Part shown: positions 21,694-51,536 of the stretch, in pieces
Layout of the letters: every line of letters starts with the position of its first letter
How positions within the stretch are numbered: the stretch's first letter is position 1
Source: Dudresnaya verticillata
Taxonomy: Eukaryota
NCBI GenBank assembly: GCA_977862235.1
Contig: OZ374557.1
Location: forward strand, 248,001 to 312,000
DNA: 64,000 nucleotides
Direction of reading: 5' to 3'
Notes under the pieces: model-generated
Seen by the model: the letters and a program-made list of their open reading frames with translations, nothing else
What the model was told of the DNA's origin: nothing
Databases searched by the model: none
Translations under genes and position numbers: made by a program

Positions 21694-21739
21694 CTGTGGT
21701 GAAAAACAACAGCAATTCGCCGCCGTTTCCATCATTGCC

Positions 21740-26757: not shown

Positions 26758-26763
26758 TGTGCA

Positions 26764-26785
26764 CTGATAGAAAGTAATAAGCCGC
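26764..26785 (-). promoter_or_regulatory. Shared gene-upstream motif (PIF1-linked gene)
   Basis: Minus strand reads GCGGCTTATT-ACTTTCTATC-AG. Confidence 0.6.
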
Positions 26786-27387
26786 TCGCAAGAAATAGAA
26801 GAGAGGAGTTAGCATGCAGCGCTATGCACAGATCGAAGAAGGTAGATGACGAGAGCAGATCCGTGCTCAAACCACAATCTTCTTCAGAAGATAGTGCTTT
26901 GGCGCAAGAGAGAGAAGCAGTTGTTTCATACGTCGCCTGAGTGATGCTGAACGGCTCTATTACGGTATGGAGGAGAAATTCGAGATTCCAAAGAGCGCAA
27001 CCTCCCTCCTCCGAAAAATCAAACATATTTCAAAAGGCACATGCCAGGTGTGTTGCCTCAGTACATTCTCGGCCCCAGTTGCATGCGTCCACCCGTCCAG
27101 CCCCTATGCGTTTACCAATACACTCAAATTAGTATTTGTGTGTTATGTAGGTAGGAAATTGAAGATGTGGATGTTGGAAGATGTAGTGAAATAGAATATT
27201 CGGACATCACATTTTTGTGGGGGGTTTGTGGGACCAGCCCAATATTAACTTGCCCAATATCGTCACAGATATTCTATGTGAGGCCAAGTCAAGACTGTCC
27301 GCGAAAATACCCATTTGTCCCGCGAACGGGACTACCTGTACGCATACTTGAAAGCCGCTATAGCATATATCTGGGTGCTTTACTCCT

Positions 27388-27483
27388 TCTATCTCCTCTC
27401 CCTTCACCGCCGCACTCCGGCTCACGCTCACGCTCGAGCGTGAGTGAGAGCGGGAGTCCGGCGGTGAAGGGAGAGGAGCTAGA
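27388..27483. repeat. ~96-bp long imperfect palindrome (hairpin)
   Basis: CTCCTCTCCCTTCACCGCCG / CGGCGGTGAAGGGAGAGGAG outer arms and CTCACGC-TCGA-GCGTGAG core. Confidence 0.9.
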
Positions 27484-27541
27484 TCTAGAGCGTATACGCT
27501 ACGACTATAGTCAGACGTCATATGACGTCTGAGTAGCAGTT

Positions 27542-27563
27542 TCATAGAATAGGAATAAGCCGT
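27542..27563 (-). promoter_or_regulatory. Degenerate copy of the shared motif
   Basis: ACGGCTTATTCCTATTCTATG; lacks the AG at +12. Confidence 0.4.
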
Positions 27564-27803
27564 TAATTACCAAGGTTCACCGAGAGGGTGGATTGTGAGT
27601 GAGATGTGTGAAACGGATTGGCGCTGAGGCGGTGTAGCAGTTCAGCAAGGTCGTAGTGCTCCTTTCAAATCCATTCGTGGGATAATATTCCATTTGCCTC
27701 GACAGCATTAAAGAAACAATTACAGGCATAAAAAATTATAAAAAAGTTGCTTCAACATCCAAGAACATTGTCATGCCGTGCTAAGAACTGCAGCACAAAC
27801 ACT

Positions 27804-30800
27804 TCATTTTAAGGCAATGGAAATAAGCCCATTCAAGATCCTTCTCGGAAATGTCGACCTCTCTGTTGCCGAATGCAGGAGAAGCCTTAGCCTTCGCTCA
27901 CAGGTTAAGGATAGATGTATGGTAAGCCAGTAGCGCGATGTAAAGTTCTTGCCCGCAGTAACGAAGACTTGACTCGATGGATGAGATTCCGCGATTTCTC
28001 TGTTCGTGAGCCACCGAGTTAACCATGTTCCTGTCTGTTCCAACTCGTTGTGAGCTACTGGTGTGAAAGTTGGGGAACAATTGTGGTTTAAGCAGTGCAA
28101 GGCGTCAGAGGATATTTGCTGTGTCGTCAATCGCCCACCATAGTGTGTGCGCAGCACTACCATAAACTCCGCATGCAAAATCATACAGAATATTTCGTGG
28201 TGGGTCAGCAAAGCGAGACTGAATGACGTCAAGGACGGCGCGCGGGCCCTCGTTCCTATCGAGCACACGAAATCCCATTACAACGGGGTGGGCACAAGAG
28301 CAGCAGAACGTCAATGCACCCGACGTGAACGCATTTTTCTTCTGAAGATATCCTTTAGAGCAAACACCAAAAACATCCACATTGGAATGCTTCGTTAACT
28401 GATCCGAAAATGCCAAAGGCCGCACTTGAGGATGAGTAGGGAAAAACACCCCTGTTCTGCATGCCGTAACATAGCCATTTGGAACCGGCCCTTCCAGATC
28501 ACTCGCTCCCGGCAAGGCACGGTACTTGATACGAAGGTCCTCTTGTCGCTTACTCTTCCACTCGACAGCAAACTCTGCTGCTGAGCAAGATGTCCGTGGC
28601 AAGTTGTCATAAACCGCATACCATTCCGATATGCGACGACACATGTCCTCAAGCGTCCTACCAATTGCCTGTGTTAGCCCAGGCAAATACGATTCACACT
28701 CGATTACACTCAACAATCCGGCTGTCAACAAGCGTAAGTGCAGAAGGACATTGTTTTCACCAAAGCAAGCTAGCGGACCTTCTGCAGAAAAGATGTTCTG
28801 TATGCCATGGAATGCCTCGTTACCGTCAGAAACTTCGGCACAACACTTAGCTACCTCTCGTAAACTAGGGAGATATGCACGGGTGATCATCTGCGGACCA
28901 GGAGAAAGAATAAGCACTCGGAACATAGACAGCAAATCCTTCAGTAATGCTTGCGTTTCGGAGCTGTCAACGGCATCAAGCCTTGTATGCCAACAAACCT
29001 GCTGCCTTCCCGCCGTTGCAAGCTTCTCTGGACTGCATGATGTGATGAAGCGAACAATAGCGTCTTTCACCCTCTTCTGCAACGGCACTTCTGTAGAGGC
29101 TCGACTGCCGGTGTCGCTACTCTTTCGCTTCCGCCGCTGTGACTCTGAATTGCAAGACCGCAAATATTTCAGCAACGCACTGCACAAACGAACACATATC
29201 ACACTGGCGTCAAACACCGTTCGCGTCAACGTACGCAGATGATAAAGCACACTTTGTTCTCCAATGTCGTCCAAGTGATCATGGGCATTCTTCCCACATA
29301 TTGACTCGAAGCAATACTGGTGAGGAATAATATCTGGGTCTGCTAAGCGAATTGCCGATACTGCTGACGAAACACTTGATTTCGAGACATCAATGCAAGG
29401 AGAACCCTTCAATGCAAGCTCTAGAAACACAGCAGTTCGTTCACGGCGCAGCAATCCGGCGATGGGGCGCTTCGGTGTTCTGCCCATATTACCAGAATTA
29501 CCCGAAGGGTTCAAAGGCTTACAGGACTGTGAGATGTTGTAGAACGGACGTGCCAACTTTTTCTGATACCCACTCCAGATTCCGTCGGTGCAGACAGCAT
29601 GAAGTCTCCCATTCTCGCCGACGCATGTATTACAGGTAAAAAGACTTGGCTCTGGCGTCATTGTCATTAGCTGGAAAATCGCCTTGCACATCTTGTGTAG
29701 AAGCCGTGTCGTTCTCCACTTCCGGTGATGCCCGAGGATATTGGTGTCGCCATCTGGAACGTGTGTAAGCTTTGCTTCTCGGGTTGGACATTCATCCCTT
29801 CTCGCCACACATTGCGCATGCCATGCAACAATGCTTCTGACCCTCCGTTAGATTCTACGAACTGAGAGAATACCTGTCTCAAGGAAGGGGACAGCTGCGG
29901 CATAAAATATTCATAGTTTGATACCAGTTGTGCCTTCCACCTATCATGAACTCCAGATGTGGTTTCATTCCCTAGTTGTATACCAGGGACAAGTCCAGCG
30001 TCCACATTTGCTACGACCTCGGAGTGGTATTGACTCAGTCGACTGTTAAGCCTCCCATTGTTTAGAACTACGCCAATCAGCTCTCTTCGTAGGAGTACGT
30101 GTGTCGCCGCAGACGAGAGTCAAAGCAAGAGGATCCAGTGATCTCGGCCCTCGGAATGAACAGTCGCTGAGCAGTCCTGCTTGCTACAGTCATAATCTTC
30201 AACATACATTCGACAGCTTCCGCCTGTGGACAGCACGATGCCTTCTCGAAAGCGTCGAGTAGATTCCACTCGAACCGAACCGCAAATGAAGCAAATGCTT
30301 GGGGCTGAGACTACGTATGGCAGCCCCATCTGAGACAGCTGAGCAACGAGACGATCAATACGAACACTTGCAGAACAGTTGACGATGGACAAGGGGTAGA
30401 CTCAGACTCCACATCATCCATGGGGTCCCAATTTAAACCGCCTGGTAGAGGACCAGATCGCAGTGGCGAAGCACTGCCTGCGGATAAGAACTCCATTGCG
30501 GGTGGCTCACCCGCGGAGAGCGCTCTCAGTTCTGTTACATGCTGGCAATGGCGACTAGCAATCTCAGTGTCACAAAACGCGCAAAGAAAGTGGCTTCCAT
30601 CTGGCGAGACACATCGCAATGGTACGAAGCACGGCTCTGAATTGTTGCCTCTCTCTTTCCTTGCTACAACAGATACCTTTGACTTATGGCGTAGCGAAAT
30701 CATAGGAAGGCTCTGTACAAATCCTTCATATAACCCGTCTTCGTAAGCACCACGGGCAAGTCTCGTCAATATTTTCCCACAAGCGCTTCTTGATAACGTT

Positions 30801-31753
30801 GTTGCATTACTAGAAACAGATGCGAGATTGTCTAACAAAGTGTAGATTGCGGTTACATGATCACAGCAGCTCTTCTCAAAACCGTCGGAAACGAGTAGCA
30901 TTCTGTACTCTGTCTGTCCGATACAAGAACACCGACCGAACCCAGCATTATCAATCCAAGTGCAGCAACTGTAGCGTTCCTTTGACTTTGAACCCCTCCC
31001 CTGTCCTCCGGATGGTCTTGTAGATGCCGATGTAGAGAAGCGACCACAAAGTGCGATATGCGGTCCCGGTATCACCTCCAAACCTCTACATGATACTTTT
31101 GAACAGCCGTGAAAGAGTTGTTGTAAGTCCTGTTTCATCTGTGACAACACCGCTAGGTTCACCGTGGGGCATTCCTCCGTGAGAATGGAAAGGAGCATGG
31201 TGACTAACCCTTCTTCACTGCCATACATTCCGAGAAGGTGTCTAAATAAAACAGACCTACTCCTTGACGGGTATTGAGACCTTATCGCATCTGTTGCCTC
31301 CCTTCTGCGCCCTCCTGAATTGAAACTTCCGCCCCTTCGCAGCCTCGTGCCATCTGAGAAGGAAACTCTTCCCGCAGGGGTACTCCAAGACGCATAGGAA
31401 GGGTCTGCCATAACCTCGCTTAGAGCGGGGACAGAATGAAAACGAGGTCGGATTACACCTCGCAAATTTCGTGACCTTCTACTCAACACTTGTGCCAGTC
31501 GTTGCATATCAGCTCTTTCAAAGAGGCTATCCCTGCTTCGTAAAGGAACAGCGGAGTTCAGAGTTGTGGTGAGGCTCCGAAGCATTCCACGCGATAACGA
31601 CGCATTACTTTCCAACAATAGCTGCCCGGGGAAATGTTCTGGACCGCGGCCAGAGCCGTTTGCAGTATTCTGCAGCCAGGACCCAACTCGAGCTGAAACT
31701 TCATCATCATCAAGGAATCGCGCAACTCCCTCTGGTGCGGAATTCATCGTCAA
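27804..31753 (-). pseudogene. KDZ (Zisupton/HMGXB3-like) transposase with SWIM and CxC zinc domains, frameshifted
   Basis: SWIM-like CSC..SCCDHV and CAFC..HCQHV; CFICGS..YDCSKQDC; FTCNTC..VCTDG; CSK..TSGALTFCCSCAHPVVMGF..EGPRAVLDVIQSRF..P..ILYDFACG; DALHCLNHNCS; VNSVAHEQRN. Spread over ORFs 30311-31753, 30120-30392, 29667-30005, 28105-29808, 27804-28268 and 27898-28080. Confidence 0.85.
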
Positions 31754-31796
31754 ATATGTCGTTAGAGAAAAGTAGGTTGAGAAAGGAATGCACCGG

Positions 31797-31909
31797 TAGG
31801 AGAAAGCAGTACCGAAGCTTGAACGTAGCTAGGAAATAGGAATAAGCCGCACAGTCGATAACGCAAGCATTCATAAACGATAGGAGAAAGCAGTACCCGA
31901 GCTTTGCAC
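31797..31909 (-). repeat. ~84-bp tandem duplication upstream of the KDZ gene; second unit split by the Copia and continuing at 37005-37061
   Basis: Unit 31797-31880; second unit 31881-31909 plus 37005-37061; both units contain the shared motif. Confidence 0.85.
31829..31850 (-). promoter_or_regulatory. Shared gene-upstream motif (KDZ transposase gene)
   Basis: GCGGCTTATT-CCTATTTCCT-AG, about 80 nt before the first ATG. Confidence 0.65.
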
Positions 31910-32242
31910 TTAATAATGAGGAGGGAAACACGTTGTGAAGAAGGAAGATAAGACAAGATAAATGGATAGATCAAATAAGAAAGTGTATTTGAATGTGTTA
32001 TAATAGTTCTTCTCGTTCTGATGCCTTGGATCAAGAATGAACAAACTATTGAGGGTTCTTATAGACTTTCTACTTCTCAGCTTGAGAGAGTATTCTAGTA
32101 GTTCAGAAAGTCAACAATAATATAGACGTTACTACTGTATAAGTGGAAGTATTGTATCTTAGCAATATTGTATTGATCTGATATTGCATGCATGTAATGC
32201 AATATCTCTAAGCAAATATCCATCAAGGACACAAGTTAGATA
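31910..32242 (-). repeat. Copia 3' LTR
   Basis: Identical to 36667-36999 except one visible mismatch (GGACAC vs GGATAC). Confidence 0.95.
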
Positions 32243-32260
32243 TTACTTCCTTTCTTGAAG

Positions 32261-35200
32261 TCAACCAAGTGATTTGGAAGAGTTACTGTGTATTGCTTTT
32301 GTAAACTCACAACAAATCTTGCCGTCGAACATTAATAATTGTAGCACATCAACCATTGAACTTCCAACTTTGGTTAAGGCGTCGGCGACATTGATTGTTC
32401 CAGGAATCCAAATGAGGTTTTGCAGTGACTGAGTCTCATAATAATACCGAATAAGTTGAACATCAGCAAATATTGACTTGTCATTAGGAACATGACATGT
32501 AGATAGAGATGAAAAAAGGTCCTTGGAGTCAACCACTACAGAAAGTGCTACGGATCCACAGAGTAAAATTGAATACGTGGAACTGATAACTCGGCCATCA
32601 TCTACTGCCTCGCTAGCAGCCAGAATTTCTGCAGATGAACTAGATTTTGCTGGTCTTCTTGACAAGTGAGATTGCCAGCTTAGGACATGATATACAGACC
32701 CTTTCTGGAGATCACCGAAAAGTAAACCTGAAACATAAGCGAGTTGACCATTTTCTGAAGGACGTGCAGCGTCTGAGAATATTAAAACAGTCAAGGGAAA
32801 TTCCCCCTTAGCAGGAGTTTTGAAAGTCGTCACGGAACCGACTTTTTGAAGCTTTCGGATAAGATGGCATTGGCGTATCATATCTTGGACTGATGGCGAT
32901 GAACTGCGTTGTTGGAGATAGCTCGTGTAAAATGCAGCTAACGGACTAACATTTTGCCCTAAAAAACCAATGGAACCATTCTTAGATGAATACTGGTGCT
33001 TTTCCAGTGCATTAAGTTCTTCATGAACTTGCTTTCGACGGATACGGGTAAATTTGTAAGGAGAAATATTTTTGAGTTTGGAATCAGCAGATATAGAAAC
33101 CATGCCCTCATTATCTTGTGTAATTTCGAGGCCGAAGAAATAAAATGCCCCCGGTAGATGTACAATAGTTCCTAGGGTATAACGTTTTTCAAGTTCCTTG
33201 ATAAACCATTCTCGAACATCTAACCTTCCAGAAATTAGCAGATCATCCACCACTTTGGCAACCAGCAGAACAAGGACTTGATTCTCCATTTTGTAGAACA
33301 ACTGAGGAACATAAACAACCCTTGAAAGACCCATTTCTGTTAAAGTACCATCGGAATGATGTTGCCATTTAGCACTGGCGTTCACTAACCCGTAACTAGC
33401 CGTTAACAAAAGCCAGTAGAAAGATCGGTTCGGACACTCACGCGGTGGTATGACATATACATCTCGAGTTGCCGGTCCCGACTGTAAAAAGGCACTCTTG
33501 ACATCAATTTTGCTAAAGAACCATCCGAAAATTGTTGTGATAGAAAGTAATATTCTAAATCCCAGAGGAGAGCAAGACGATGAATCAGTCTTCAAATTGG
33601 TCTTCTCCTTGTCTTTGTTGCCATGTGGAGCAATGCGAGCTTTGCAAATCTTAGAACCATCATCTAAAACCTTGATTTTGTACAGTACATGGCTGGAAAT
33701 AATATTTCCATTACTAGGTACCTTTGATATGTGAACTTCTTCACATGTTCGAATAAAATTGTCTTGTTCAACAGAGTAAGAATTCTCTAGTACAGACTGA
33801 GGTAAACCTTGGGCAGCAGATAATATAAATTCCTTAGAGCCAAAGCGATCAAAGTATCTATTTAAAAATTCGTTCTCGGCGGAGCTCAAAGTGTGACCAG
33901 GACGCAGAATAATTTCTGCAGTGTTAGCCTGGCGTGCCATAGATCGAGTCACCATTTGCCGCTCATCACTTAAAACATCAGGGGTAGCAGTGTTCGGAAC
34001 ATGTGTAAGCATGTCAAGGTCAATTTCTTCCTCAGGGTTATTACCATCTGCATCTTGTATAGCAATCTCTTCACCATTAGTTTCAGATTTAAAGTAATCC
34101 AGATCATCCACATCATCACACACATTGTGTACTGGAAAATTTTGCATACGTTCCCTATGTACCGATTCGTCTTCCAACATTATGTTACATTCATCAGAAC
34201 CAATGTCAATTGCCTCATTGGACAAGATGGAAAAGTCGGCATCACTGGGCAGTGCAGGTCGCACATCTTCGATAGCTGCACAAATGGGCTTACCAGAAGA
34301 ACCAGGTACGGTTATTGACCGAGACTTCTGATCATACGTCAGAACGGGGCGAGGGGCACTCCATTTGCCACGTTTCTCTGTAGGGTGCTTAATAAAAATT
34401 TCCACAAGGTCACCAGACTTGATGTTATTATCTAAAGTGGCTTTTGAACGCATTATTGCAGTCAACTTTCGGCGTGCCGACAAATCTTCGTGTGCACGAA
34501 TAATGTCAGGTGGCACAACAATTGGTGAATTATTTGGAAACACAGGTCGAGTATATCCTTTGGCTAGCTCGTGTGCAGATGCAATGTCATTTCCATAAAG
34601 ATCATTTGAAATGCGAATGGCTTGAATTATAAGAAGCCTTGCATTAGTGCTATGATTGGCATGTCTAAGTCGATTAAATATAGACTTAATAACCCGGTGC
34701 TTTGACTCTATAGCATTTTTGCTTGGACGGCGAGGTGGAGCAGGACGAAAGCTGATACCAAGTTGTTTGAGATAAGATTTAAAATCCGAATTGTTAAAGG
34801 CAGGATCACCTTGAACTGCAATTGGAGGCCAAAAGGTAGATATCCAACATGCTTCAAGAGAATATATTGCATCTTCCATATTTTTGGTCGTAACGCAGTG
34901 CCCTGAGGAATACCTGGACATCGAGTCCATTACATGGAATACATTTAAATCCTCGGGGAAAAATGATCAATGAAGACAAGATCATTAAAACCACGCGATA
35001 AATTATTTAGAGATACAGTACGAGCCTTTTTGGGCAGGTCTGTAGAGTGACAGTCTCGACACGACTCTAGAAGCTTCGACAAGTACGATGCACATTCATC
35101 ATTCCATAGATTATTTCGTTCAAGTAAAGTCTTGATGTCATAGTAGTTGGAATGACCACAGACGTGTGCATGAACCTTGTCTATAATATGCTTCAAATTG

Positions 35201-36663
35201 TTCCATTCAATAGAGCTAGAACTACTGATAAGGTTTTGAATAAACTCATTATCAATAGAAAGATTTTGGGTACAAGTATTATCATATGGTGCAGTTTGTA
35301 CAAAACGGTCAGCAGGTAGATAGTCGAGTAAATCTTCTTTCACGATACGAATAGAATCCTGTATTCCGGCATCATTCTGAAATGGGAGTTGTAAAACGTT
35401 GCCATTCATATGCATAATGTTGCAGTGCTTCGTGATATTTTTGCCAATGACCCATTGAGACGACCCCGAAATAACAAGGTGCCTGATACGAATAGTAATT
35501 CCGCAGTCACTTATTGCATTTAAATCCACGGAGCCCAATATACATCTTACTGAACTTGAATGGGCGCCCTTTCCATACTGCCAGAATGGGCGGTCAGATA
35601 CAGAGTCAGGAAGTGGTCCTAATTTACCGGACCAATGCGGTAAAATTAAAGGTGAGAGCTCACGAAGCTCAACTATTCCCATGCCAGAATATGGAGCTCC
35701 ATCACCAAGTAGTGGATTAGGAAGACGGGAAAGAGTTTCAGAAACAGAGCCATTATTCAGAGTTACCATGCTGAAATGTACTGTCTTAGTCTTAGCAGGG
35801 ATATTGCCAGTTTCAACTTGAGCTTGTTTTACATCTGTGGATTTGTTGAGTGGACATTCCGGATCGATTGACCAGTGTCCTTTTTTCTTACATGCACGCA
35901 ACTTCTTCTTGACTTCAGTAATTTCTGATGGAGTCATGTCAGAAATCTTTTTTCTGCGAGGCGACTTCGTAGATTGTGGAGTAAAACCACTACTGGAATT
36001 TAAAGTAGAGTTGGAGGTTCCTATGATATCCTTAGGACGGTCACATGTGCGAAGAATAGTGGCTAAATCTTCGTATTTGAATTTCCGTAGCATTTCAGCC
36101 GAAGTTGCAACAGCTTCTCCTTCGGCCTGACGGGGTGCAGCTGCGGAAAGGATAGATACACGTTGATTGGAATCTACCTTAGAATTAGCCAGCAGTAGAA
36201 ACGAACATAACGACTCCGGTAATGCTGACTCCGTGGCTGTAGCATTAAAGCGGCTTAAAACAGCATCAAAGCGCATTTCAAAGGTTTTAAAACCTTCTTG
36301 ATCACCAAGTGTTGTACTTAGTAAAGATAAAAATTTCTGGAAGACATCATTCACAACCGCCAGAGGATCGGCTTTGTGAAGAGATTTTGCTATTTCAATT
36401 GCACCATTCACGCCATGAATAGTTTCAGTATCCAGTTTCATAACAATGTCTTGAGCACGACCATATAGCTGTGACTGCATCATCATTCCTTGAAGCTCAG
36501 AAGGAATCTTATTAGGATTGCTGTCAGGCAATTTATCATGAAAGGTTGACCACAACTTGACAGCATTTAGATAACGTTCTTGGTTTCCACGTCCATCGGT
36601 CCAGGGAGCATCCTTGATTGTCCACGAAAATTTGGGACGAGAGGGCAAATCAGCTGGGCCCAT
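32261..36663 (-). CDS. gag-pol: Copia gag-pol polyprotein with one frameshift in the integrase (about 34950)
   Basis: Damaged knuckle RACKKKGHW..EC; protease LLGDGAPYS; integrase HAHVCGH..CRDC, VFIDH/VMD, QGDPAF, AIESKH; RT KARIAPHG, IDVKSAFLQ, YGLVNA, KVVDD; RNase H FSDAA, AEILA, VDSKDL, NVADALTK. Confidence 0.93.
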
Positions 36664-36666
36664 AAC

Positions 36667-36999
36667 TTAATAATGAGGAGGGAAACACGTTGTGAAGAAG
36701 GAAGATAAGACAAGATAAATGGATAGATCAAATAAGAAAGTGTATTTGAATGTGTTATAATAGTTCTTCTCGTTCTGATGCCTTGGATCAAGAATGAACA
36801 AACTATTGAGGGTTCTTATAGACTTTCTACTTCTCAGCTTGAGAGAGTATTCTAGTAGTTCAGAAAGTCAACAATAATATAGACGTTACTACTGTATAAG
36901 TGGAAGTATTGTATCTTAGCAATATTGTATTGATCTGATATTGCATGCATGTAATGCAATATCTCTAAGCAAATATCCATCAAGGATACAAGTTAGATA
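36667..36999 (-). repeat. Copia 5' LTR
   Basis: Direct repeat of 31910-32242, followed on the minus strand by the PBS and gag. Confidence 0.95.
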
Positions 37000-37008
37000 T
37001 GCACGTGG

Positions 37009-37030
37009 CTAGGAAATAGGAATAAGCCGC
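37009..37030 (-). promoter_or_regulatory. Shared motif, duplicated copy displaced by the Copia
   Basis: GCGGCTTATT-CCTATTTCCT-AG. Confidence 0.6.
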
Positions 37031-37274
37031 ACAGTCGATAACGCAAACATTCATAAACGATTGGGGGTACGGGATTGGGGTTAGTGGGATGCGACTTCGG
37101 GTAGGGTAAGCGTAAAGGGTGCCGCGGTGTGTATGCTGCAGCTCTGCGCGCAAGGGCGTCATGTACAGGTACCTGCAGGTACCAGCTCGGCGGCTCACAA
37201 CAGTGTGATGAGTTCAGGCGGTGATTGTACTGTAGTTCCACGAACCCATGCTGCCATGCATTGCTGACGCCGAC

Positions 37275-37332
37275 AGAGCCACATGGTCACAGCGCCGTCG
37301 TCGAGAGCCACATGATCACAGCGCCGTCGTCG
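37275..37332. repeat. 29-bp tandem duplication in the divergent intergenic region
   Basis: AGAGCCACATG(G/A)TCACAGCGCCGTCGTCG x2. Confidence 0.85.
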
Positions 37333-39028
37333 TGACCAGATCCCACCCTGTACCAGTTCCCCTCATTTCCAAACAAGCCAAAATAATTACGGAAAAAATG
37401 GTGGAGCAATTGGATCAATCAGGTTAGAATGGGATCTAAATGTATTGGACCTCCTCTTCACGATAGCTGTAAACGTTAGTGCACTGCTTTAAACAACAGA
37501 AGCGATATCTGTCTGTGTGTTTCGACATGTTTCTATGCTTCTCAGGGTCCTAGGAATATACGCGGATCTTGAATTGGGAACTTTAGCGGCCTATGAGCGG
37601 AGATTGAGGGATGTTTGAAGCTTCAATGGACCCAAAAACGCACTTTTCGATTTCCGCTGATATCTCTGCGAGTAGTTCGTTTCATTCCAAACCGATTGGA
37701 TAGGCGTACTCTGCTCATAGAAAGGAAGCTCTAGCAACCATTTGTTTTATTCAGGTCTGAAGTGTGGTTTCAAACATTCTACTTCTGTACATTCAGAAAC
37801 TCTGTTATTGCGACATATCTTCCGAACACACAAGTTATAAAACGAACTTTCGAAAATATGCTTCGGAGTGATTGGGATTGTGGCACGGGACCCTGGGCCG
37901 AAAGCCTGGATAGTCATTGCCGTGAAAAGTGCTCTTGTTCAACCGTGGGGAATATAGAACTGGAAAGGTGGTATTTACGGCGGTATTTACGCGTTTTCCT
38001 GACCGCTTTTCTTTTTTGCCTACTTGTTTTTTCAACATTCCACCTACGCATGTGACGAAATCAGGTAAATGATTGCAGGACTCTTGCCCCTCGTAGGAAA
38101 GCGCAGCAATTTTATGCCTGTTCACTACAGTCATGGAAGGGTTGATGAATGGGACTATACATTACCAAACACGTTCTCAAGAGGGCCAGAAAGGGCTTTC
38201 TGTGGATAAACGTCAGGTGAGTGGCACGATGAGTTGCACGATGACAAGTATTTTGTAGTTGTATTTTTCTGATTGGTAGATTAGGAGCTGATCCCCTGAA
38301 ATTAAACAAAATAAGGCGCAAATGAAGAGAGAAATTATTCTTTTTTTACAGCGTCGGCTCTGAGCTGCGGCTCACCGTGCGGCCTGCGGCGGCCAGTTGC
38401 TGATACAGCTTAAGCTGCCAAATTTGCACCGGCCATACTTGCCATATGGCCCGGACCCCCACATCCGAACATCCTCTGATCCGCGTATCAACTAGCCTCA
38501 ACAAGCCTCAACTCGCAAGCCTCTGCCAACACACGCGCCCATCCTACCCTTCCCCTTCTCCCTCTTCGCCTCGCGCAACTCACAATACTTGTGCCACCCG
38601 CTCCCCCCGCCCCCCTTCTTCCCCTTGCCCCTCAAGGGGATCCCCCGCTACCCCCGGGAGGCCTGCCTGCCACGTACGCGTAAGCGTGGTACGCTCCCGA
38701 CACCCGCCTCCCTTGTTGTCGCTCTGCACGGCTCCCAGAGGCCCGGGGCCTCAACACACCCGCCCCTCCCCACGCATTGCTGTGGAACCAACCCCTAAGC
38801 TTCCTACCCTGAGAAGGTTTTCACACGCGAGTCGCGACGTCGACGACTTGTACTTAACAAACACAGACTGCCTTTGCACTGCGACGGAACGTGTCAGGGT
38901 CCGCGGACCTGAACTGTGCACGGAAACTGTTGTGCAGAAGACATCCCTACAACAAACGCGGTTGTAGGGAACCGGCCGATTGCGTTTCTAACTAGCTTTT
39001 CTCCGTGTATTGCGTGTTTTGTGTGCGT

Positions 39029-39050
39029 GCGGCTTATTCCTATTTACCAG
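39029..39050 (+). promoter_or_regulatory. Shared gene-upstream motif (SF1 helicase gene)
   Basis: GCGGCTTATT-CCTATTTACC-AG. Confidence 0.65.
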
Positions 39051-41599
39051 AACAACTCATGCTGTTGTCAACTTCGCCACTTCACTTGAAGTACGGAAAA
39101 GATCACAGCTTATGGACATGGATATTCGAGATGGTGGCGGTAATGCCGAAAAGAAGTGCGGCGGCGGTACTGAGGGCCCACCCTTTGCGGTTCCTCCCGC
39201 GGAGGATGTTTCTTTGAACGCCAAACTCATATGGCTGAAGAATGACTGCGCAGACATTATCGACGACGACCTTCACCGCTATTTTGAGGACCATCATCGC
39301 GCAATATGCGAGGATCTCGGAATAGCAACGAAGTCGTTGAGCACAATGTTCAAATTCATGTCTCTTGTGAAATCTCCTCCTTTGTTACCTGTTTGGAAGC
39401 GCTACGAATCCTTCCCCATTTTTCTGCTATTCTACGGTCCAGAACGGAAATCAAGAGATAGTGGAGAGCATGTTACTGCTGGCGGTTGCGAAAGGCGGTG
39501 TAATCCCAAGGGCGTATGAAGATCCAGTTTCTACAACATACCAATCTCAGTGGGATGACCTTGCGATCAGGTTTACACCCGATGCCCGTCGCGCCGTTGT
39601 TGCCGTGGTTCTGTGCTTCTGCTCCTTCTCGAGTACAGTCTGCGGTTCCCTTCTGGCCAAAGAAGTTTCTTCTTGTCGTGACGTCGTATGTGTGCTGGAG
39701 GAGGCGTCCCGCAAGGAATGGTGGCAGAAGGGAACGTCAGAAGGAAATGGATTCACCGGGCTTGGGATAGAAGGGCTAACTGCCGGCTGGAAACTTGGTC
39801 ATGAAATTCTTAAAGTTACGCTTGGCGGTATGTGGCAAAGCGGATCTGATGACAGGTATGACGGGAATTTGAATGTAAGGACGCTCCGCAAACTTCTCCC
39901 TAGGTGGATTCAGGATATCGTTCAGGAAACCGCGATATGGATGCTTCAAACAACTGCGCAAACTTGGACCCGAAACAGCCTCGGCGAGGTCAGCATGGAG
40001 AACATCCCAGTAGAGCAACTCCGCACTACTATGGTCGCTGTTTATCGTCTCCTCCGAAACCGGCTTTGTAGGCACACATGCATCCAGAGAATGAGCAGGT
40101 TTGAGTTCTCTGTTGATTTCAACAAGATGCTGGATGCGATCAAGTCAGGGTACGACCCAACACATGTGTGGAAGAGCCCGTATTTCAAGCTGGACTTATC
40201 CCTGGCGGGCAGGCATTTTCTTGGCGATGTCGGATCAGAAGCCGTTCACAGTGTACTTGCTTGTCTTTCCAATCGCTTGCGAGATGAAGACGAGAAGAGA
40301 GCCACCCTGCAGAGAACCCTCGCTTGCCTCAAGTCGAAAAATACCGCGGCGAGGCTGAGAATAATCGGACTTCTGGGTATGCCATCCTTTCAGCGGCTGA
40401 GAACAATGCCAGGAATAAAAGGTTTGGCATTACTGGACAATCAGAAGGGCTTATGTCATCGTCAGAAGGAGATGGGTCAGAGGAGCTGCCTACGGCCGGT
40501 CGCTTTCTTTCAAGAGATCCCGAAAGACAACGCAAATTGAGAAGCTTGTCTAGGAGGTTAAACGCTGCTCTTGGTGTGGCGGTAAAGTCGGTGCCGATCC
40601 AGAAGCCTGTCTTACAGAAACCTCGGCATTGGACATTCGGTCCAGATATTGCTGATCGTCCAAATGTACCTCTACCAAGAGCACCTTCGCGACCAAACAT
40701 TCGGCCTTCGTTACAAGCCCCGAGTACAAGGAATGGTTTTTCGATTGCCAGAATTGGCAAACGTGCGGACCATACCGATGGCTTTTACGACATGAGCGTC
40801 GACTTCGAAGAAGAGGACGCCCCATACCGCTCCTCTCCCCGTGGAGACGGCCGTCATTGCATCGATGCAGAGATCTCTTCTGACCGTAACGATGGTATTC
40901 TGCCCCGAGCGATATCGCCTGAGTCTGGAGGTGGGAGCTTCATCGCTGATTCCCCACTGAAAAGGAAGTCCTCGTTAACACCACGTTACTTGGAACCTCC
41001 AGCGACGCCCAAGAATACCGGAAATAAGCTGCCCCTGATCCTTTCTCCGGAGTCTGGGGGTGGTAGTTTTATTGCGGGGTCTCCAGGACGACTATCGCCG
41101 TATCCAGAAGGTCGTTTGGGCGCGGGTGCTGCAGAAGTTGACGCCATCATGTCACATTCGGCAGATTGCAGTGATGCTGATGAAGGCAAAGCAGAGGGTG
41201 GATTTGTGAAGCCTTGTTACACGCACTCTATTGCACCGTTATCGTCGAAGGGCCAACATCCTACATCTGAGCAAAACCCGGGATACCTCCAACCACTTCC
41301 CCCCCGTGACAGCGTCTGCAGTGATATCGAACTGAAGAACGTAACCACCGAGGAGAGTGCTGGAAAGGTTGCAGATGCAACTGATATTCAGGAAGAGGAA
41401 ACTGCAGCTGCGGAAACAGTCACATCGCCCTCCCTACAAATTGAACCTCCTGCAGAGGAGAGTGGTGAGCAGTTTGACGAAATGAATAAGCGTTACGAAG
41501 GCGTAGAAAGTGAGAGTGACTTCGGCACGGAGGAGCTGATTTCTTTTATTAACCAGCCGTATATAGTGGCCGGAAAGCCTGCTATTTCTGCTCCTGACA

Positions 41600-41965
41600 C
41601 AAGTGCAAATCCTACAACAGAAAATCCGTGTTTGGTCAGTAATGATATTCTCTTGGAGGGGATGGAGGTTCATGACAAAAATGAGAAGGAGAGCCCTGCT
41701 GGTGGCAGATCGAAAAGCGAGACAAATGCTACTACAGAGAAGCCGTGTTTGGTCAGTAATGACATCCACTTGGAGGGGATCGAGGTTGATGACAAAAATG
41801 AGAAGGAGAGCCCTGCTGGTGGCAGATCGACACACGAGACAAATGCTACTACAGAGAAGCCAGGTGTCGTCAGTAATGACATTCATGAAGTGCACTTGGA
41901 GGGCATGGAGCTTGATGACCAACAAAAGAAGGAGAGCCCTGCTGGTGGCAGATCGACAAGCGAGG
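41600..41965 (+). repeat. Three in-frame ~120-bp (40-aa) tandem repeats
   Basis: TNATTEKPCLVSNDIHLEGIEVDDKNEKESPAGGRS-like unit x3. Confidence 0.9.
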
Positions 41966-43164
41966 AGCATAACTCATCTTACAACGAAGGCAGACGAAGA
42001 ACCGATGGGGATGAAGTTGCTGAATTTATTGGCCAACAAACGTCCGGAAGTTCGCAACCTAATGCACCCAAGTGCCGTGGAAAGAGGAAGAGGCGGTTCG
42101 CTTTGGACGCACTTCGCGTACAAAGCGACTTTCTAACCAACTTTCAGGAGATGCGAAATGCCATCAACGGCGAGCCGCAGGGTACAGAACCATTCTACCT
42201 CGAACATCCTGAGTCGGACAATGAGAGAATGAACTTCTATTCAGACCTTTACTCAGTCGCCGATGGATTATGGAATGCTCCGAATGATTCATCAAAATCT
42301 CCGAAAGACTTGGAAGAGGGCCTCGCGGATGAGCTCAACACCGAGCTCGAAATCTGGCATGCTGCATGTACTTTTCTCAATGTTGACCCACGAGACCCTA
42401 TTGCCACGCGAGAGGCTGCTATTGCCGATGTTGGGGACATGGATTGGGTACAGAAATTCTTAACTGGAAACAACAGTCTTATCCTCGCGAAAACAACTGT
42501 TGCAACACATATAGCGCAGTATTGTGACCATCTCAAGGTCTTTCTGTACGCTGACTTATTCTTTACCGTCCAAGGTGCAATGAAGAAGGCCGTGCCGGAA
42601 TTGTTTCGGAGAGAGTCAGCCTACAACAGAGAAATTTTAAGAGAGGCACTGGATGCTCGAAAAGAGGGAATGCTTTCTTTTATCGTCAAGAGGGCTAAGT
42701 CTGGTAGTCTCCTTACCAACCTCAAGTGTGCTACCCGTGACCGGAGATTCAACAAGCGTACAATTACTGAGCTCGCAGGGGTTACACTGTGCCTTGGATA
42801 TTTTCAACGTGAGCCGTATTCAACTAACTCGACGTGTTCGCATGTTATGCTCTTCGTTTCTCGTAGTGTCACCTACGACGATGAAGATGTTGACGTCATG
42901 AGTGCGGAAGGAAGACTATACAAGGTAGCTGCGAGAATCTGTTGTAACAAGGTGCGTGCAGAGGCATGGACGCCGGAGAAGGGAGATATTCTTCATATCA
43001 CGGCCCTTGAGTCACTGGTTGCGATACACAGGGAATTCAAAGCAATTCACTACTTGCCTCTTGCACCTGAGAAGATTCGACGCACCTTGTTTGGCAAAGA
43101 GGTTGAGGACTTCGATGGAACATTTTGTGAGCGGAGGGAGGAGATCTAAGACAAATCACTTCGA

Positions 43165-44874
43165 GTGGACCTACGACATGGTGTTGACCCCGGTTGTCTA
43201 CAGTATTTGGATTCCTTGCGTGAAAGTATTTGCAACCCTTCGCAGAAGAACGCAATAACATGCATTCTGCGCGAAATGGGCAACTTAAAAGCGGAGTCCT
43301 CGTCGTATTCGCAGATTGTGGGCCCCCCTGGTACAGGGAAGACCACAACCATTTGTATCTTAATTGCTTCGCTACTTCATCACTCAACTGCCGGGCAGAT
43401 CTATGAAGGAGCATCTGCGAAGGATTTACTTAACTGCGAAGACGACACATTGAGATTCACCGATAGCCCAGATGGGCTTCGCATTCTTGTGTGCTGTTCC
43501 TCAAATCAGGCGGTGGATCACATCGCCCGGAAGCTATTGAACGGCATCCCGGACGGGAATGGTGGCAAGATATTCCCTAATATTCTTCGAATAGCACGAC
43601 AGCATTACTCGTATGGTGACTTGCAGCATATTTCGATTGAAGAGAAGAGTGCTCCCTTCGAAGCCCATTTCTTGGAGCTGAACGGAGGTATACATACCAC
43701 GGACAAAGATGAATTAAGCGAGGCTACACAAGGTCTCCGTGCAATGTCTCGAGAATGTATTGTCGTTCTTTCGACGCTTTCCGCATCTGCAAGCCAAGTG
43801 CTTCATGATCTTCGTGTCGGCTTCGACGTAGTTATTACGGATGAAGGTTCGCATGCAACAGAGTCGGAAACACTCATACCGATTGTTAGCGTCGCTAGGT
43901 TGCATAGGGGTTTGTGTCGTTCTCACATTGTAACTTCTGGGGACCATCACCAACTTCCACCAGTCGTGCGGTACGAACATGCCTTCTCCTACTTCCTAGG
44001 TCATAACAAGTGGTTTGAGTACAAGGACTACTTCAAGTACCAAATCATGTCGTTGTTTGAGATAATGGTTCATCGTGGACGATGTCCTGTTCTTTGGCTG
44101 TGCCAGCAATATCGCACGCATCCGGAGATCGGCAGGATACAGTCGAAGGTGATATACCGTGACGTCGTGCAACACCCCTCGTCTAGTGATCCCTACATTC
44201 GTCCCTACAACGACTTGTCTGCCGACATGGGATCATTTGCTCCGTTCACCTTCATTGATACATCCGTTACGATGGATCGGTTCGAGCTCAGCAAAGGAAG
44301 AGGGTCGTTCACAAACACGCTGGGAACCAAAGTTATTGATGAGACACTATCTCGTCTCTGCAGCATTGCAAGACTCTATGGTGGGGACGAACTACTACGG
44401 GGTGATATATTTGTTACAGCACCTTATCGTTCTCAAGTTTCTTTCCTGCAGCGTTACTTGAATAAGTCCTCCTATTCGAGAAGGGGTTGGGGAGAACGCT
44501 TAAATGTCGACATATCTTCAATTGATTCTCTTCAAGGTCTGGAACGTGGTATTGTAATCATATCGCTCACACGCAGCAATAGGAGAGCGGACATCGGGTT
44601 TCTATCTGATTCCCGGCGCATCAATGTGGCAACAAGCAGAGCCAAGTATTTGCTCATAATTATTGGTGACGCCACTACAGTTTGTCGGAGGAGCCACGTT
44701 CTTGAGAGTTACTACAGAGCTTGTCTCCAGAACTCTGCCGGTGCGGCCGTGGAGTACGTTACACCGCAGCGTGGAAGACACGATCACGAACGAAGTCGAG
44801 AAGTAGATTTGCGAACTAACAGAATCTACAGGCATAGGGACGGGTATGAATTGAGAAGCAGAAACACTTCCTAA
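43165..44874 (+). CDS. SF1 helicase domain (UPF1/SEN1/DNA2-NAM7 family)
   Basis: GPPGTGKT, ILVCCSSNQAVD, VITDEGSH, GDHHQLPP, QYRTHPEI, APYRSQV, IDSLQGLE and RRINVATSRA. Confidence 0.93.
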   Translation: MDLRHGVDPGCLQYLDSLRESICNPSQKNAITCILREMGNLKAESSSYSQIVGPPGTGKTTTICILIASLLHHSTAGQIYEGASAKDLLNCEDDTLRFTDSPDGLRILVCCSSNQAVDHIARKLLNGIPDGNGGKIFPNILRIARQHYSYGDLQHISIEEKSAPFEAHFLELNGGIHTTDKDELSEATQGLRAMSRECIVVLSTLSASASQVLHDLRVGFDVVITDEGSHATESETLIPIVSVARLHRGLCRSHIVTSGDHHQLPPVVRYEHAFSYFLGHNKWFEYKDYFKYQIMSLFEIMVHRGRCPVLWLCQQYRTHPEIGRIQSKVIYRDVVQHPSSSDPYIRPYNDLSADMGSFAPFTFIDTSVTMDRFELSKGRGSFTNTLGTKVIDETLSRLCSIARLYGGDELLRGDIFVTAPYRSQVSFLQRYLNKSSYSRRGWGERLNVDISSIDSLQGLERGIVIISLTRSNRRADIGFLSDSRRINVATSRAKYLLIIIGDATTVCRRSHVLESYYRACLQNSAGAAVEYVTPQRGRHDHERSREVDLRTNRIYRHRDGYELRSRNTS

Positions 44875-45870
44875 GGGCGACAAAGGTTGCAGTCATGGGA
44901 ACTGGAGTACTGCGGTTTAGGTGATTTGGGCCTCAACTATTCTTCTAGAAGATGTACATGAATGATGTTTATCTTATTCCTGTGCAGCACTGCTGATCTC
45001 TCAGCATACATTTTCTCCACCCTTCCCGCTTTCAGGCATCCCCTGCGGTTGCAATATTTTCTTTGCGTTCTACCTTTTCACTTCCCATCCATTCCCATCC
45101 ATCGCGTGCTACCTGCACCCGCCCGGCTTCTCCCTCCCCAGACGCGCTGTTGAAACCTACTCAAAACCGCACCCATGGGTTGTGGTCACACAGCCACAGC
45201 CGCTCTCTAACTCAGGCTAAAATGCCGCACCGCCCTCGTTTGCACGACTCCACTGCTATCTTTTCCACAAGTTGTGAAACATGTGCCCACAAGATGTGTC
45301 GGTTCTCCAATTGGAGTTACATATCTTCAGCGTGTTATTTTTTGTAATTGATATTCCCTTGCCGCGTGTTGGTAACTTCCGAATGTGCTATCCTGGTGTT
45401 CTTTACAGCGATCTTCAGCATTAGTACTCAGCAAGTTCAGCTGAAAGTCAGCTTCTGTAATGCAATGCCCCTGGCGCCTGGCATCTGTAATGCCGAGTAG
45501 CCAGGGCTCAGAGAAATTTCCTTTTTTTATTTGATTGAAGCGCACCCACACATTTGTCTCCGCCCGCTCCGCTGGACTTTTTGCTCGCTCCCTTCTTCCT
45601 TCCTCTTGCTTCGTCACTGGAATGCAGTTACAGTCGCACATCGCCGGGCTTGCCTCCTCCCCCAAACGTTGCCTCCCACCCGACACCCACCCCGCCACCC
45701 CAGTCGTTCCTCTCTCCCAGCCTGCTCCCCGCTTTCCTTTGTCGACGGCCACCTCTGGCACTGTGCCACGCAGCTGCGGATAGGTGGCATCGTCTATGAC
45801 CTTTCCGTATCCTCAAGTTGCCGTTCTCGCTACGCTTACTTCTGTTCTTGTTGTGCGGTGTGTTTACGTT

Positions 45871-45892
45871 GCGGCTTATTCATTTTGACAAG
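45871..45892 (+). promoter_or_regulatory. Shared gene-upstream motif (unknown gene)
   Basis: GCGGCTTATT-CATTTTGACA-AG. Confidence 0.65.
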
Positions 45893-46039
45893 AATTCTTA
45901 GCTCTTGAGAGCTAACCGCTTGGTGCAGAGCTACCTACGCGGGAACAGCACGCGTGGCGTGGTGGGAAAGGATCGGCTCCGAAATCTACCAGACATTGGA
46001 GGCACGCGAGACAAGCGTCTTGCGCTTGCCCCTACAGGT

Positions 46040-47881
46040 ATGGGCGCAATGGACCCCGATGAAAGTTCCCGACGCCGTAGGGGAACCCCGTCTGCAGCTG
46101 TCCGCCATGGCAAAGTCACCGAAGATGCAATGACAAGTGCAGATCATCAGGTGCGAGCCGTTCCGCAACCACAAGACGAAGTAGCCGACAAAGCTTCTCC
46201 ATTACAGCAACTGTCGCACGATGTGGGTTGTGCTGAAAAATAGAGAGGCGGCCATCTTAAGCGCAACAGGGGAATCATGGACCGGGACACAGAAGTTGGG
46301 CATACGAGGAGAGAAATGCTGCGGGGCCGAAGAGTGTTGCTCTTCGACAAGTGCCTGAACATGTCGTTCCATACTTTGTGCCATCCAGATTATCGTCCGT
46401 CCTGGGGTACTGGCGCAGGTGATTTGCAAGTAGGAGGGCTGAAAGGTGGAATGGAAGTCGCAATGCTGCGTGCATCCATGGGAATTGTACTTGATGAAGT
46501 TCAAAAACTCCCGGAAGAAAGGAGGCAACAGGTATTAGAGATAATCCGGGATATTCTCGGTCGGACGCCTGAGACTGGAATACGAGGAGGGAGGCGTGGA
46601 GTTATGCGCATCCATACCACTAACAAGCGGGTTCTTGACTGGGCCGCAGCAGAGGACATCAGATACTCTTTGTATTTGACTGTCGACCTTACAACGAAGG
46701 TTGGAGGACGCCAGGGCCCGCTCTACAAGATGGATGCATGTGCTGGGATGTTAAGGCCATTCGTAATCGGTTTACATGCCTCGATTTCTATCAAGAAGGG
46801 CCCCCTGAATGTGACTCTTTCTCCCGTCTTCATGTTGAGCCTTTCTCTTCCTCTCATTTTACATCGTTATGGGTATGGTTCTTACAGCTCAAACTGGATG
46901 GATTTTACTCAACTTCTTCGAGGTGTGGATAATTCCTGGAAGCGAATATTCACTCCCTCCGTCATTCGCGTAAGAGTTGGGGACCTTTTCCCGCTCTTGT
47001 CTGGGGATCAAGAGCTTAATTACGGTGCATTGCAGCGAGCAATCCTTTCCCAGTGCGCATTTCGTGTTTGCATGGCTATTATGGAAAGCTTGGAAGATGG
47101 AAGTTGCGGTACTATTTCATCAGACGAGGGCGCGTGCACTGCAAAGAAAGGAAATGTTGGGAAATTCCTCGTCGATAGAGGTGACAGGCTTTCATAAACC
47201 TACAACAAAGTTAACAAGTATGTAAGAGATATTGAGGAGGGCTTCGCATCTATCAATCTCGAGGTGGTGTCGTGGTTGGAGCTTTGCAATCTTCTTCATC
47301 TCAGCACGTCGTTGGCGATACAATCCGTCTCAACGCTAGAACGTGCAACGCAGTCGGGTGCACAGCAACTCAAACAGGGAAAGAGTTGCAATGGTGAGAT
47401 GCCATCCTCGCTTGCATGTGACTTGAATAGATTTCTGGGTAATGTAGCTTCTTTGGAGCACAAAATCAGGAAACTCAAGACAGATAAAGCGAAGACTGTT
47501 GTGTTAACTGAAGGAGAAGAGGAACACTCCTTCGCGAAAGCTCTTCTCAAGGACATGTTCGAGAATTTGTTGGTTGCACTTCGCCTAAGCAGAGACATCA
47601 AGAGGTTTGCAACGCGTGAAAAGTTCAAACTACCTATGAATTTCAACGACGTGGCTGTCTCGATACAAAATGAGCATGACAAACGCTGGGTTGCGAAGAT
47701 GCAGCGATTGCTTTCCCTCGCCATTGCAAGTTTGGGAGCTCCCGATGTCCTCGAGCCTGTATACGGGAAGCTCCTGGCTTTACTCTACATTAATGCGGCC
47801 AACAAATGTGCTGGAGGAAACAAGAAGAGGCACAAAGCCAGGAAGCTCTCTGATCAGTCGAATGCCTCAAAGGAAGACTAA
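46040..47881 (+). pseudogene. Unknown ~610-codon gene with two in-frame stops
   Basis: ORFs 45905-46243, 46277-47197 and 47264-47881 are all in one frame; a Cys-rich remnant (CSCCKSLSLPCTC) follows at about 47964. Confidence 0.65.
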
Positions 47882-48730
47882 CTGATTCTATTTATTCCCT
47901 TGCTGGGCTAGCGCTCTGCGCAGATGTAAATGTGATAATATCTACAGTGAAGTTGGACTGCCCATGGGATGTAGTTGTTGCAAAAGCTTGTCGCTCCCAT
48001 GTACTTGTATCTGGCTACAAGAAAGCCTTAGCCCGCAAAACGTCTACACGGCTTTACAACGCCTCTGTGGGACATGCAATGACGTCATTGCTGCTCAGTG
48101 GTGGGAGGGTATCCCTATTGTGGAGAATGATGAACTGATTTCAAAACATCTACTTCTGGCAATAATGGCTGGACAAAGTGTACTGTCATCATGTTTGTTG
48201 ATAATTGGGCGTGGGGGGCGTGGTTACCGTGTTAACCTGCGCTCTAACCTGGCGAAGCTGGTCGTCAAACACGCAGAGTCGATACATTTCAAAACTTTAA
48301 GTTTCGTGCATCAGGTAAACACCGAGTTGAAAAAAGGAAATTCCTGTAATCACCCAGCTGAGCCCGCGGGCCATGCGTGCCCGTCGTGCCTCTTTTTTCC
48401 AATGTTCATTTCTGCTCGTGCGCACTTCACTGGTCGTTGGGGATCGCCAATATCAGTGTAACGGCTTCTTCATCCTCTGTGGTCAAGGGAACCTGACCTC
48501 AAACCAGGGGACCTGGTGAGCCACGTGCACACGCACCGCAACAAGCCTTTCACTTCTGCTATTAGGGTGCTGGCTAGCACCTCGACGACTGGAACCAACA
48601 ATTGTTGTCGTAGGGTTCAAGTTATTGGAACGGTCTCTAAGTGGCAATCTGAGTGGGAACGCAAACAGGAACAGATTGCGCAGCGTTGTGTTTCTGACTT
48701 TTCTTTGTCTACTGCGTTGTTTGCGAAACT

Positions 48731-48751
48731 GCGGCTTATTTCTTTTTCTAG
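48731..48751 (+). promoter_or_regulatory. Shared gene-upstream motif (Ulp1 protease gene)
   Basis: GCGGCTTATT-TCTTTTTCT-AG. Confidence 0.65.
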
Positions 48752-48895
48752 TAGTGCGCAGTGGGGCTGCAACTCAATCGTTGGTGTATTGGGAGAACAA
48801 TGGTTGGAGCTGGACAGTCACTGCCGCCTATGGCCAAAAGGGAGCGACGGAAAAGAAGTCGTGTAGACGGGCAGGCCGCGCTCGATAGAGACTAA

Positions 48896-50878: not shown

Positions 50879-51536
50879 AAGCCCATCGCTGAAGCAGGCT
50901 CGGAAAAGGAGAAGGAATTTCAGGGTCTCCAGCGGATTCAGATAGAACCGAACCGAGGAAGAGCAAGCGCTTGAAGGGGAAGGGGCTGTGGATGAAACTT
51001 CTTCGAAGTAAGTCACAGGAACCTTGAAGCGACCGACTTAGTAGCTTTGTTGAAGTAGCATTCTCAACTTGAAAATGTTTGTGCAGGTTATTAATTTGTG
51101 TAGCTAGCTGCAGCTAGCATTGTAAATATGATGTGTTGTGTGTCAATACCAATGAACTGCGTGAAGAAGAGGCGGACATTAGCGTCGATGATGGAGGCTA
51201 ATGGAGACTGTAAAATGGCGTATACAACTTTACTGAGTTCGTAGGTAGTACAAACTAACTGAGAAGACGCAGTGGGGGCCGGGGACGCGGAACCCATTCT
51301 CTAACTACGTACAGTAGTGAGCTTACCGCGCGCAAAACGGTCATGGCCGTTAGTGAAAATGAAAGCTCTTGTTGTATTATTGTCGAATGTATGGCTAGTA
51401 TAAAATGTCCTTTGCTTGTGTGAAACACAGAGACGTTGGTCCAACTGACTCTCCTGGTGTGTTTAGCATTTATAGTCCTTGTGCAGGTTATTAGACGTGG
51501 ATCTTCGAGAATATTGAAACATAACATGGGCAATTG

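Follow-up and report, generated by a model that had tools for sequence, protein, structure and literature searches.

A decamer shared by genes of a decayed KDZ-like element of Dudresnaya verticillata: a candidate splicing signal

Multi-gene DNA transposons must co-ordinate the genes that they carry as cargo, and little is known of the means by which they do so. The question is raised by a 64-kb stretch of Dudresnaya verticillata contig OZ374557.1 (the window), which holds one decayed copy of such an element and in which the original prediction had seen one decamer, GCGGCTTATT, followed at a nearly fixed distance by AG, ahead of the genes of a block. The element-restricted motif is real: all five independent sites lie within a decayed ~26-kb KDZ/Zisupton-like (KDZ, Kyakuja-Dileera-Zisupton) element carrying a transposase, PIF1, a Sen1-like helicase and an Ulp1-like protease. 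These sites are likely splice acceptors. The explanation that we tentatively favour places the decamer in the 3′ end of cis-spliced leader introns, where it is predicted to pair with a GTGAGCCGC-like 5′ splice site.

A decamer confined to the element

In the whole window, GCGGCTTATT occurs six times against 0.16 expected; at least six copies were reached in none of 100 shuffles, and the highest count of any 10-mer in 60 Markov simulations of the block was four. The six copies and the variant ACGGCTTATT lie where they had first been reported (Table 1), and no exact copy falls outside 26.7-48.8 kb of the window. The first AG ends 12 nt past the decamer in five copies and 11 nt past it in one, and a common 2-nt AG window across five sites has P <= 1e-4. 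Because an ~84-bp tandem duplication, into which a Copia element inserted, accounts for both the 37021 and the 31841 copy, one in each unit, the independent sites number five (A to E, as the genes that follow them) and not six.

The decamer stands on the coding strand 60-160 nt ahead of the ATG, with 48-147 nt from AG to ATG. The claim that it precedes every gene holds for five genes but not for the PIF1 open reading frame (ORF; ATG at 24354) or a Cys-rich ORF at 47964-48461, which have a decamer only if they are fused to the ORFs upstream; PIF1 is a stand-alone ORF in one relative (L052). The variant ACGGCTTATT is likewise present, but without an AG at +11/12. Two further one-mismatch copies had been overlooked, one at 38310-38319(-), followed by TTCAG at +14, and one at 41023-41032(-), antisense within a coding region. 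One-mismatch decamers number nine against 3.7 expected, which is near chance. The exact decamer is invariant although the ORFs of the element hold many stops. Around it, the A and C regions are identical at 22 of 24 nt, and C and E are similar over 66 nt (71%), confined to the span from branch site to AG; except for these 66 nt, the interiors of the introns are unrelated.

Acceptor layout in the window and in related elements

The sites resemble U2-type 3′ ends (CTRAY, pyrimidine tract, YAG), in that CTRAC stands at -46 to -73 from the AG in four of the five and YAG is found in four of the five, site D having CTTAC and AAG. A CTRAC at -40 to -85, again at four of five sites, is found at 319 of 5,665 background AGs (5.6%; P about 5e-5, and P=1.8e-4 after local-composition shuffling), and an AG-free tract of at least 53 nt (four of five sites) at 3.8% of the background; both ranges were chosen after inspection, with the relatives of the element as the outside check. 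Exons would start in phase 0 with the ORF at four of the five acceptors; D and E contain in-frame TAGs past the first AG.

A metagenome scan gave 55 related loci, in which PIF1, and in two loci also Ulp1, stands beside the transposase. Transposase starts were examined in 25 GC-rich loci, 14 of which, including several close pairs, were assignable by an N-terminal motif. At 11 of these 14 starts the same acceptor layout is found (2.4% in the background), and all 14 have a private consensus donor 150-450 nt upstream (28% in the background). A PIF1 intron defined by protein homology is present in six of nine loci inspected; its donors are GTAYGT, and its branch-like sites stand well ahead of the AG. 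The six are L013, L014, L024, L025, L038 and L044, and the branch-like sites, where found, lie ~50-85 nt before the AG. This conserved PIF1 intron of the GC-rich elements is absent from the window and from L052. Since the transposase and PIF1 introns of the relatives share the layout, the window sites look like 3′ ends of introns of the same type. Like the relatives' U2-type leader introns, they would for the most part combine a GTRNGY donor, a far-upstream CTRAC, a pyrimidine-rich AG-free tract and a YAG close before the ATG, and the predicted 190-nt intron of gene A lies at the same position as the relatives' transposase leader intron. Taken together, the upstream CTRAC, the AG-free tracts and the shared layout support the 3′ splice acceptor that had been proposed. 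A and E are the sites best accounted for by a private leader intron.

The branch point is another matter. The original prediction had placed it in the CTTAT of the decamer, which breaks the branch-site consensus WCTRAYN as given in PMC2483917; because a canonical CTRAC also lies further upstream in four of five sites, CTTAT is less likely to serve, and the branch point is probably not there. The acceptor regions fold locally no better than shuffles do (z -0.7 to 0.4), and at no single site does the decamer pair significantly with the 30 nt that precede the branch site (p 0.06-0.43). One by-product of the comparison is of relevance to gene prediction, namely that branch sites in the related red-algal elements lie ~50-90 nt before the AG.

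The relatives do not share the word itself. Unlike the window sites, their acceptors have no 7-mer in common around the AG, the highest count being 3 of 11, and pairing of their donors with the 3′ end is poorer. As a hint only, GCAGCTTAT, with AG at +11, stands ~70 nt before the transposase ATG in L004, one of four such loci with upstream DNA.

Donor complementarity and rival explanations

Read as RNA, the decamer (TGCGGCTTATT) is, with G·U pairs, the antisense of G/GTGAGCCGCA, which extends a consensus donor by 4 nt. The pattern GCGGCTYAY has eight matches in the window, all eight inside the element; besides the six decamers, they comprise two GTGAGCCGC, read as donors on the minus strand, at 37198 and 38375, which stand 190 and 80 nt upstream of motif-bearing AGs. 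When 7,469 GTs are ranked by their pairing with the decamer, these two come first and second, the one at 38375(-) being the best complement and the only full 11/11 donor partner. When the first four bases of the decamer were varied over all 256 4-mers and compared with donor positions +7 to +10, the real TGCG ranked 1 of 256 at windows of 900-1100 nt (p_pool 0.0008-0.019, five core sites). With one rule for all, pairing scores are 17, 13, 20, none and 18 in the window against 9-16 in 11 relatives, and the best pairing falls on the decamer itself in three of six window sites. Consensus GT donors within 400 nt are found at three of the five sites (A, C and E; background 1.45 per kb). Site C has the GTGAGTGGCA donor at -834 from its AG and E the GTGAGCCACG donor at -236, and the predicted intron at E may lie inside a longer ORF with 47964-48461. 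At B, consensus donors stand at 584-668 nt and none within 580 nt; at D, an in-register complement of the decamer at 45780 starts with AT. This pairing is suggestive, as moderate and post hoc support.

Under the favoured explanation, each of the five genes would have a cis leader intron that branches at a distant CTRAC, as in the related elements. More tentatively, the decamer would pair with the extended donor and so bring donor and acceptor together, or the pairing might instead hold the intron shut until it is unwound; a role of the element's own Sen1-like helicase in the unwinding is speculation. The cargo genes would thereby come under one shared splicing signal.

A number of observations weigh against this explanation. 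Site D has no consensus donor within 1.1 kb, the donor partner of B is 662 nt off and inside a palindrome, the best pairing of C involves bases just upstream of the decamer, and in B and C there are upstream ATGs past the AG. The decamer is missing from each of the 55 related loci. The pairing test was set up with the data already in view, and its result varies with window size: at 400 nt, with the extra site omitted, it is not significant (p_pool 0.18-0.20, TGCG rank 39-43 of 256), the Fisher value for the five sites is 0.055-0.14, and the difference in pairing between window and relatives has p=0.07 (0.03 with the extra site). Mismatches in the donors are uncompensated in the invariant decamer, a pattern easier to reconcile with a single common partner, or with a protein, than with private pairing, and an inverted DNA site fits equally well because the differences between donors and decamer are transitions.

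It is possible, if unlikely, that the same acceptors are used with the decamer as a protein-bound splicing element or a proximal branch point (CTTAT, A at -15) and that its match to donors is incidental. An invariant decamer over five genes with varying donors, a fixed AG distance, a candidate intron (38375-38296) without CTRAC and pairing statistics that are only moderate all suit this idea, and the complementarity of GTGAG and CTTAT partly follows from the two splice consensuses. However, it meets the same objection as the CTTAT branch point above, and it leaves the donor extension CCGC(A) beyond the consensus unexplained. Shared-leader and trans-splicing models are kept alive by the donors missing from D within 1.1 kb and from B within 580 nt. 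Here, one or two leader exons at 37.1-39.0 kb would be joined to alternative acceptors, in cis or in trans on both strands, with the decamer docking a single shared donor in the manner of Dscam1 or mod(mdg4). The invariance of the decamer, the single full 11/11 partner at 38375(-), the restriction of the C-E similarity to the span from branch site to AG, the phase-0 exons and the overlap of the CTAAC of ORF 47964 with the stop codon of gene D all point this way. We nevertheless regard it as doubtful, given that A and E have near donors of their own, the donors of the relatives are private, B and D are preceded by gaps of ~1 kb, D and E have in-frame TAGs after the first AG, and a search of Rfam gave no gathering-level match, spliced leader (SL) RNA included. 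The segment 38285-38450, weighed as an SL RNA candidate, folds no better than shuffles (z=-0.12), and we know of no SL trans-splicing in red algae. A more far-reaching form of the idea is more doubtful still, namely that the transposon has a splicing code of its own, in which a U1-mimicking anti-donor word beside every acceptor would capture a shared GTGAGCCGCA donor, with one leader joined to genes of both strands by alternative or trans-splicing, or with introns locked until the element's Sen1-like helicase opens them.

The decamer may also act in DNA, as an initiator or a transcription-factor site (GCGGCTYAY) of element promoters with a start near TTATT, which we consider about as doubtful as the shared leader. 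Initiators have the consensus YYANWYY, which TTATTCC fits, and TTATTYY or a close variant is present at the sites, a match of low information; the coding-strand position 60-160 nt before the ATG would suit a promoter, and the two GCGGCTCAC may be inverted DNA sites. There is a precedent in oomycetes, in which the portion available of PMC3599244 describes an initiator (INR) plus flanking motif of 16-19 nt near the transcription start site (INR+FPR). Yet nothing in this account leads one to expect an upstream CTRAC, an AG-free tract or an AG at a fixed distance, all of which match the intron ends of the relatives. Far less probable is a functionless relic, be it a leader cassette that was copied, the old end of an intron-forming transposon or a retrocopied, worn spliced leader. 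A 23-nt block with AG at its end does stand ahead of each ATG, and the A and C copies agree as closely as noted above, but the decamer is invariant where the ORFs are stop-ridden, there is no duplication between the bases that precede the donors and those that precede the AG, the introns are unrelated in their interiors, and a leader relic would not bring an upstream branch site. In introners, which are intron-forming DNA transposons, the target-site duplication (TSD) supplies a splice site and copies are similar in sequence; the introner was rejected here on the bases before the donors, which differ from the 12 nt before the AG, and on interiors unrelated except for the 66 nt of C and E.

The element and the signal in context

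The left arm of the element, on the minus strand, carries the transposase and gene B with PIF1, and the right arm genes C, D and E; all hold stops or frameshifts (Table 1). The transposase protein of the window has no Pfam match. It has 224 relatives at E up to 0.001, one cluster of which includes a Porphyra umbilicalis protein; four of 18 scanned homologs match CxC4 or KDZ below the curated Pfam cut-off, and the motifs align. On these matches, and on PIF1 and Ulp1 beside the transposase in related loci, we infer a KDZ-like element of a red-algal host; the homologous cassettes bear out the placement of the block inside a transposon. In the portion available of PMC12730594, Zisupton is defined among KDZ DNA transposons by terminal inverted repeats and 8-bp TSDs, Kyakuja having TSDs of 7 bp, and bioRxiv 2025.02.11.637652, likewise available in part, speaks of Zisupton elements of red algae that have accessory genes. 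Our element resembles KDZ elements in its transposase homologs with sub-threshold CxC4/KDZ matches and in its recurrent PIF1 and Ulp1 cargo; it differs from the related KDZ-like loci in its Sen1-like helicase, which was not seen there, and from published KDZ accounts, as far as the portions available go, in its shared expression motif. The best inverted-end candidate (20773-20828/52254-52309) matches at 73% over 56 nt (E=0.01; 23/30 best ungapped), and none of 1,512 direct-repeat pairs of 7-9 bp checked as TSDs is flanked by convincing inverted ends. We class this decayed copy as KDZ-like and not as Zisupton. A direct repeat of ~27 nt (85%; 20475-20499/52475-52501) lies just outside both candidate ends.

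Table 1. Decamer sites, predicted or candidate introns and genes of the element, in window coordinates (a slash marks the start of a donor)
Feature	Position	Strand	Remarks
Acceptor B decamer	26776..26785	-	AG ends 26764; CTAAC, branch-like A at -46; one intervening GAG
Acceptor A decamer, second tandem unit	31841..31850	-	AG ends 31829, 81 nt before transposase ATG 31747
Acceptor A decamer, first tandem unit	37021..37030	-	AG ends 37009; CTAAC at -73; AG-free 84 nt
Acceptor C decamer	39029..39038	+	AG ends 39050; CTAAC at -60
Acceptor D decamer	45871..45880	+	AAG ends 45892; CTTAC at -55 in place of CTRAC; consensus GT donor lacking over 1.1 kb
Acceptor E decamer	48731..48740	+	AG ends 48751; CTGAC at -55; second TAG 3 nt on
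Variant ACGGCTTATT	27554..27563	-	Ahead of short ORF 27545-27207; no AG (at +11/12), no CTRAC
Predicted 190-nt transposase leader intron	37009..37198	-	Donor GTGAGCCGC pairs with decamer in lowest-energy fold; splicing inferred
Candidate 80-nt intron	38296..38375	-	Donor G/GTGAGCCGCA; variant GCGCCTTATT at 38310-38319; no CTRAC; no clear downstream gene
Candidate intron(s) before gene C	38217..39050	+	Far donor CAG/GTGAGTGGCA at 38217; near GTACGC/GTAAGC at ~38674-38689
Predicted 236-nt intron before gene E	48516..48751	+	Donor G/GTGAGCCACG, one mismatch to decamer
Candidate donor for B, GTGAGCCGGA	27425..27434 (from 27425)	-	662 nt upstream of AG, inside 96-nt palindrome 27388-27483; weak
Element, approximate extent	20773..52309		Candidate ends: 73% inverted match of 56 nt
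Gene A, Cys/His-cluster + KDZ-like transposase	27790..31747	-	Broken by frameshifts and stops
Gene B (weak homologs L002, L004), then PIF1 helicase 24354-22669	22669..26679	-	Broken
Gene C, N-terminal part of unknown identity + Sen1-like SF1 helicase	39112..44874	+	Broken
Gene D, protein of unknown identity	46040..47881	+	In-frame stops
Gene E, Ulp1/C48-like protease	48800..50878	+	Motif alignment only; no Pfam match itself
Copia long terminal repeat (LTR) retrotransposon	31908..36964	-	Within tandem duplication; identical 300-nt LTR cores; GTGCA both flanks

The best PDB match of the gene C helicase is SEN1 (E=4e-34). Genes B and D have no near-length homologs, gene B no usable Atlas match, and a single-sequence structure prediction for D was unusable (predicted local distance difference test, pLDDT, 32). 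None of ten proteins matched PHROGs, and scans of viral contigs gave one chance match inside a phage gene and no related loci. Upstream of the transposase, 19 GC-rich loci share a conserved accessory gene (for example L024:4790-5779), which has a C..H...Q.HP end and no significant Pfam match.

Palindromes at 27388-27483 (96 nt), 27508-27535 (28) and 26868-26901 (34) lie in the 1 kb that separates gene B from the transposase. ACTAAC over the gene D stop codon, with a pyrimidine tract and TAG after it (47877-47912, +), is a possible motif-less acceptor for ORF 47964, and an intron-like stretch of 58 nt in the open frame of gene C (GTGAGCCGT...CTAAC...TAG; 42809-42866, +) is probably due to chance. 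The 24-bp inverted A/C pair on either side of the centre was rejected as ends of a miniature inverted-repeat transposable element, B, D and E having no partner. About 2 kb from the candidate left end there is a broken, Crypton-like tyrosine-recombinase ORF with a weak Phage_integrase match (17447-18527, +); a recombination-site reading of the decamer was rejected as it left the upstream branch site unexplained. A degenerate inverted repeat at 11514-12000/57320-58276, 46 kb apart, has 87 nt at 90% and further arms, and it probably represents two copies of one repeat because its right arm abuts a Gypsy reverse transcriptase and no TSD was seen by eye. Elsewhere in the window there are a DUF7869 ORF (717-1373, -) and a similar-looking decayed ORF at ~6494-7600, both probably further transposase relics, a TIR-domain gene fragment (12742-14037, +) and an intronless broken ion-channel gene (9074-10900, -).

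Known systems offer partial parallels. In C. elegans, the Ur element pairs with the SL2 5′ splice site, and the decamer would likewise be an acceptor-side word that mimics U1 by donor pairing. Complementary sequences at opposite intron ends enforce splice-site pairing in zebrafish (AC)/(GT) introns and in the docking and selector sequences of Dscam1, according to the portion available of PMC4691745. The predicted complementarity here is of this kind; unlike in these systems, the decamer would have the 5′ splice site itself as its partner, is a fixed word placed between the branch site and the AG, and is carried by a transposon. Trans-splicing of Drosophila mod(mdg4) also uses a short conserved motif, TSA, as described in part of PMC4387717; the decamer resembles it in being common to several genes, whereas TSA lies in the 5′ intron and binds U1. 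In contrast to both Ur and mod(mdg4), no SL RNA or trans junction is shown for the element. The portions available of PMC5880011, PMC3594237 and PMC9297572 hold nothing on the signal. In the literature searched we found no description of the motif; that search did not extend to Repbase, to the Chondrus genome paper or to the curated families of red-algal Zisupton in the bioRxiv supplements, which may bear on novelty.

In summary, what is new here is that the decamer is, with G·U pairs, the antisense of the extended donor GTGAGCCGC. To judge from the DNA, it may be an element-wide splicing signal of a kind that we did not find described in the literature searched. If this is true, an intron signal shared by the cargo genes and pairing with the 5′ splice site would co-regulate them through splicing. 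Should one leader serve both strands, the element would carry a trans-splicing system in a lineage for which we know of none.

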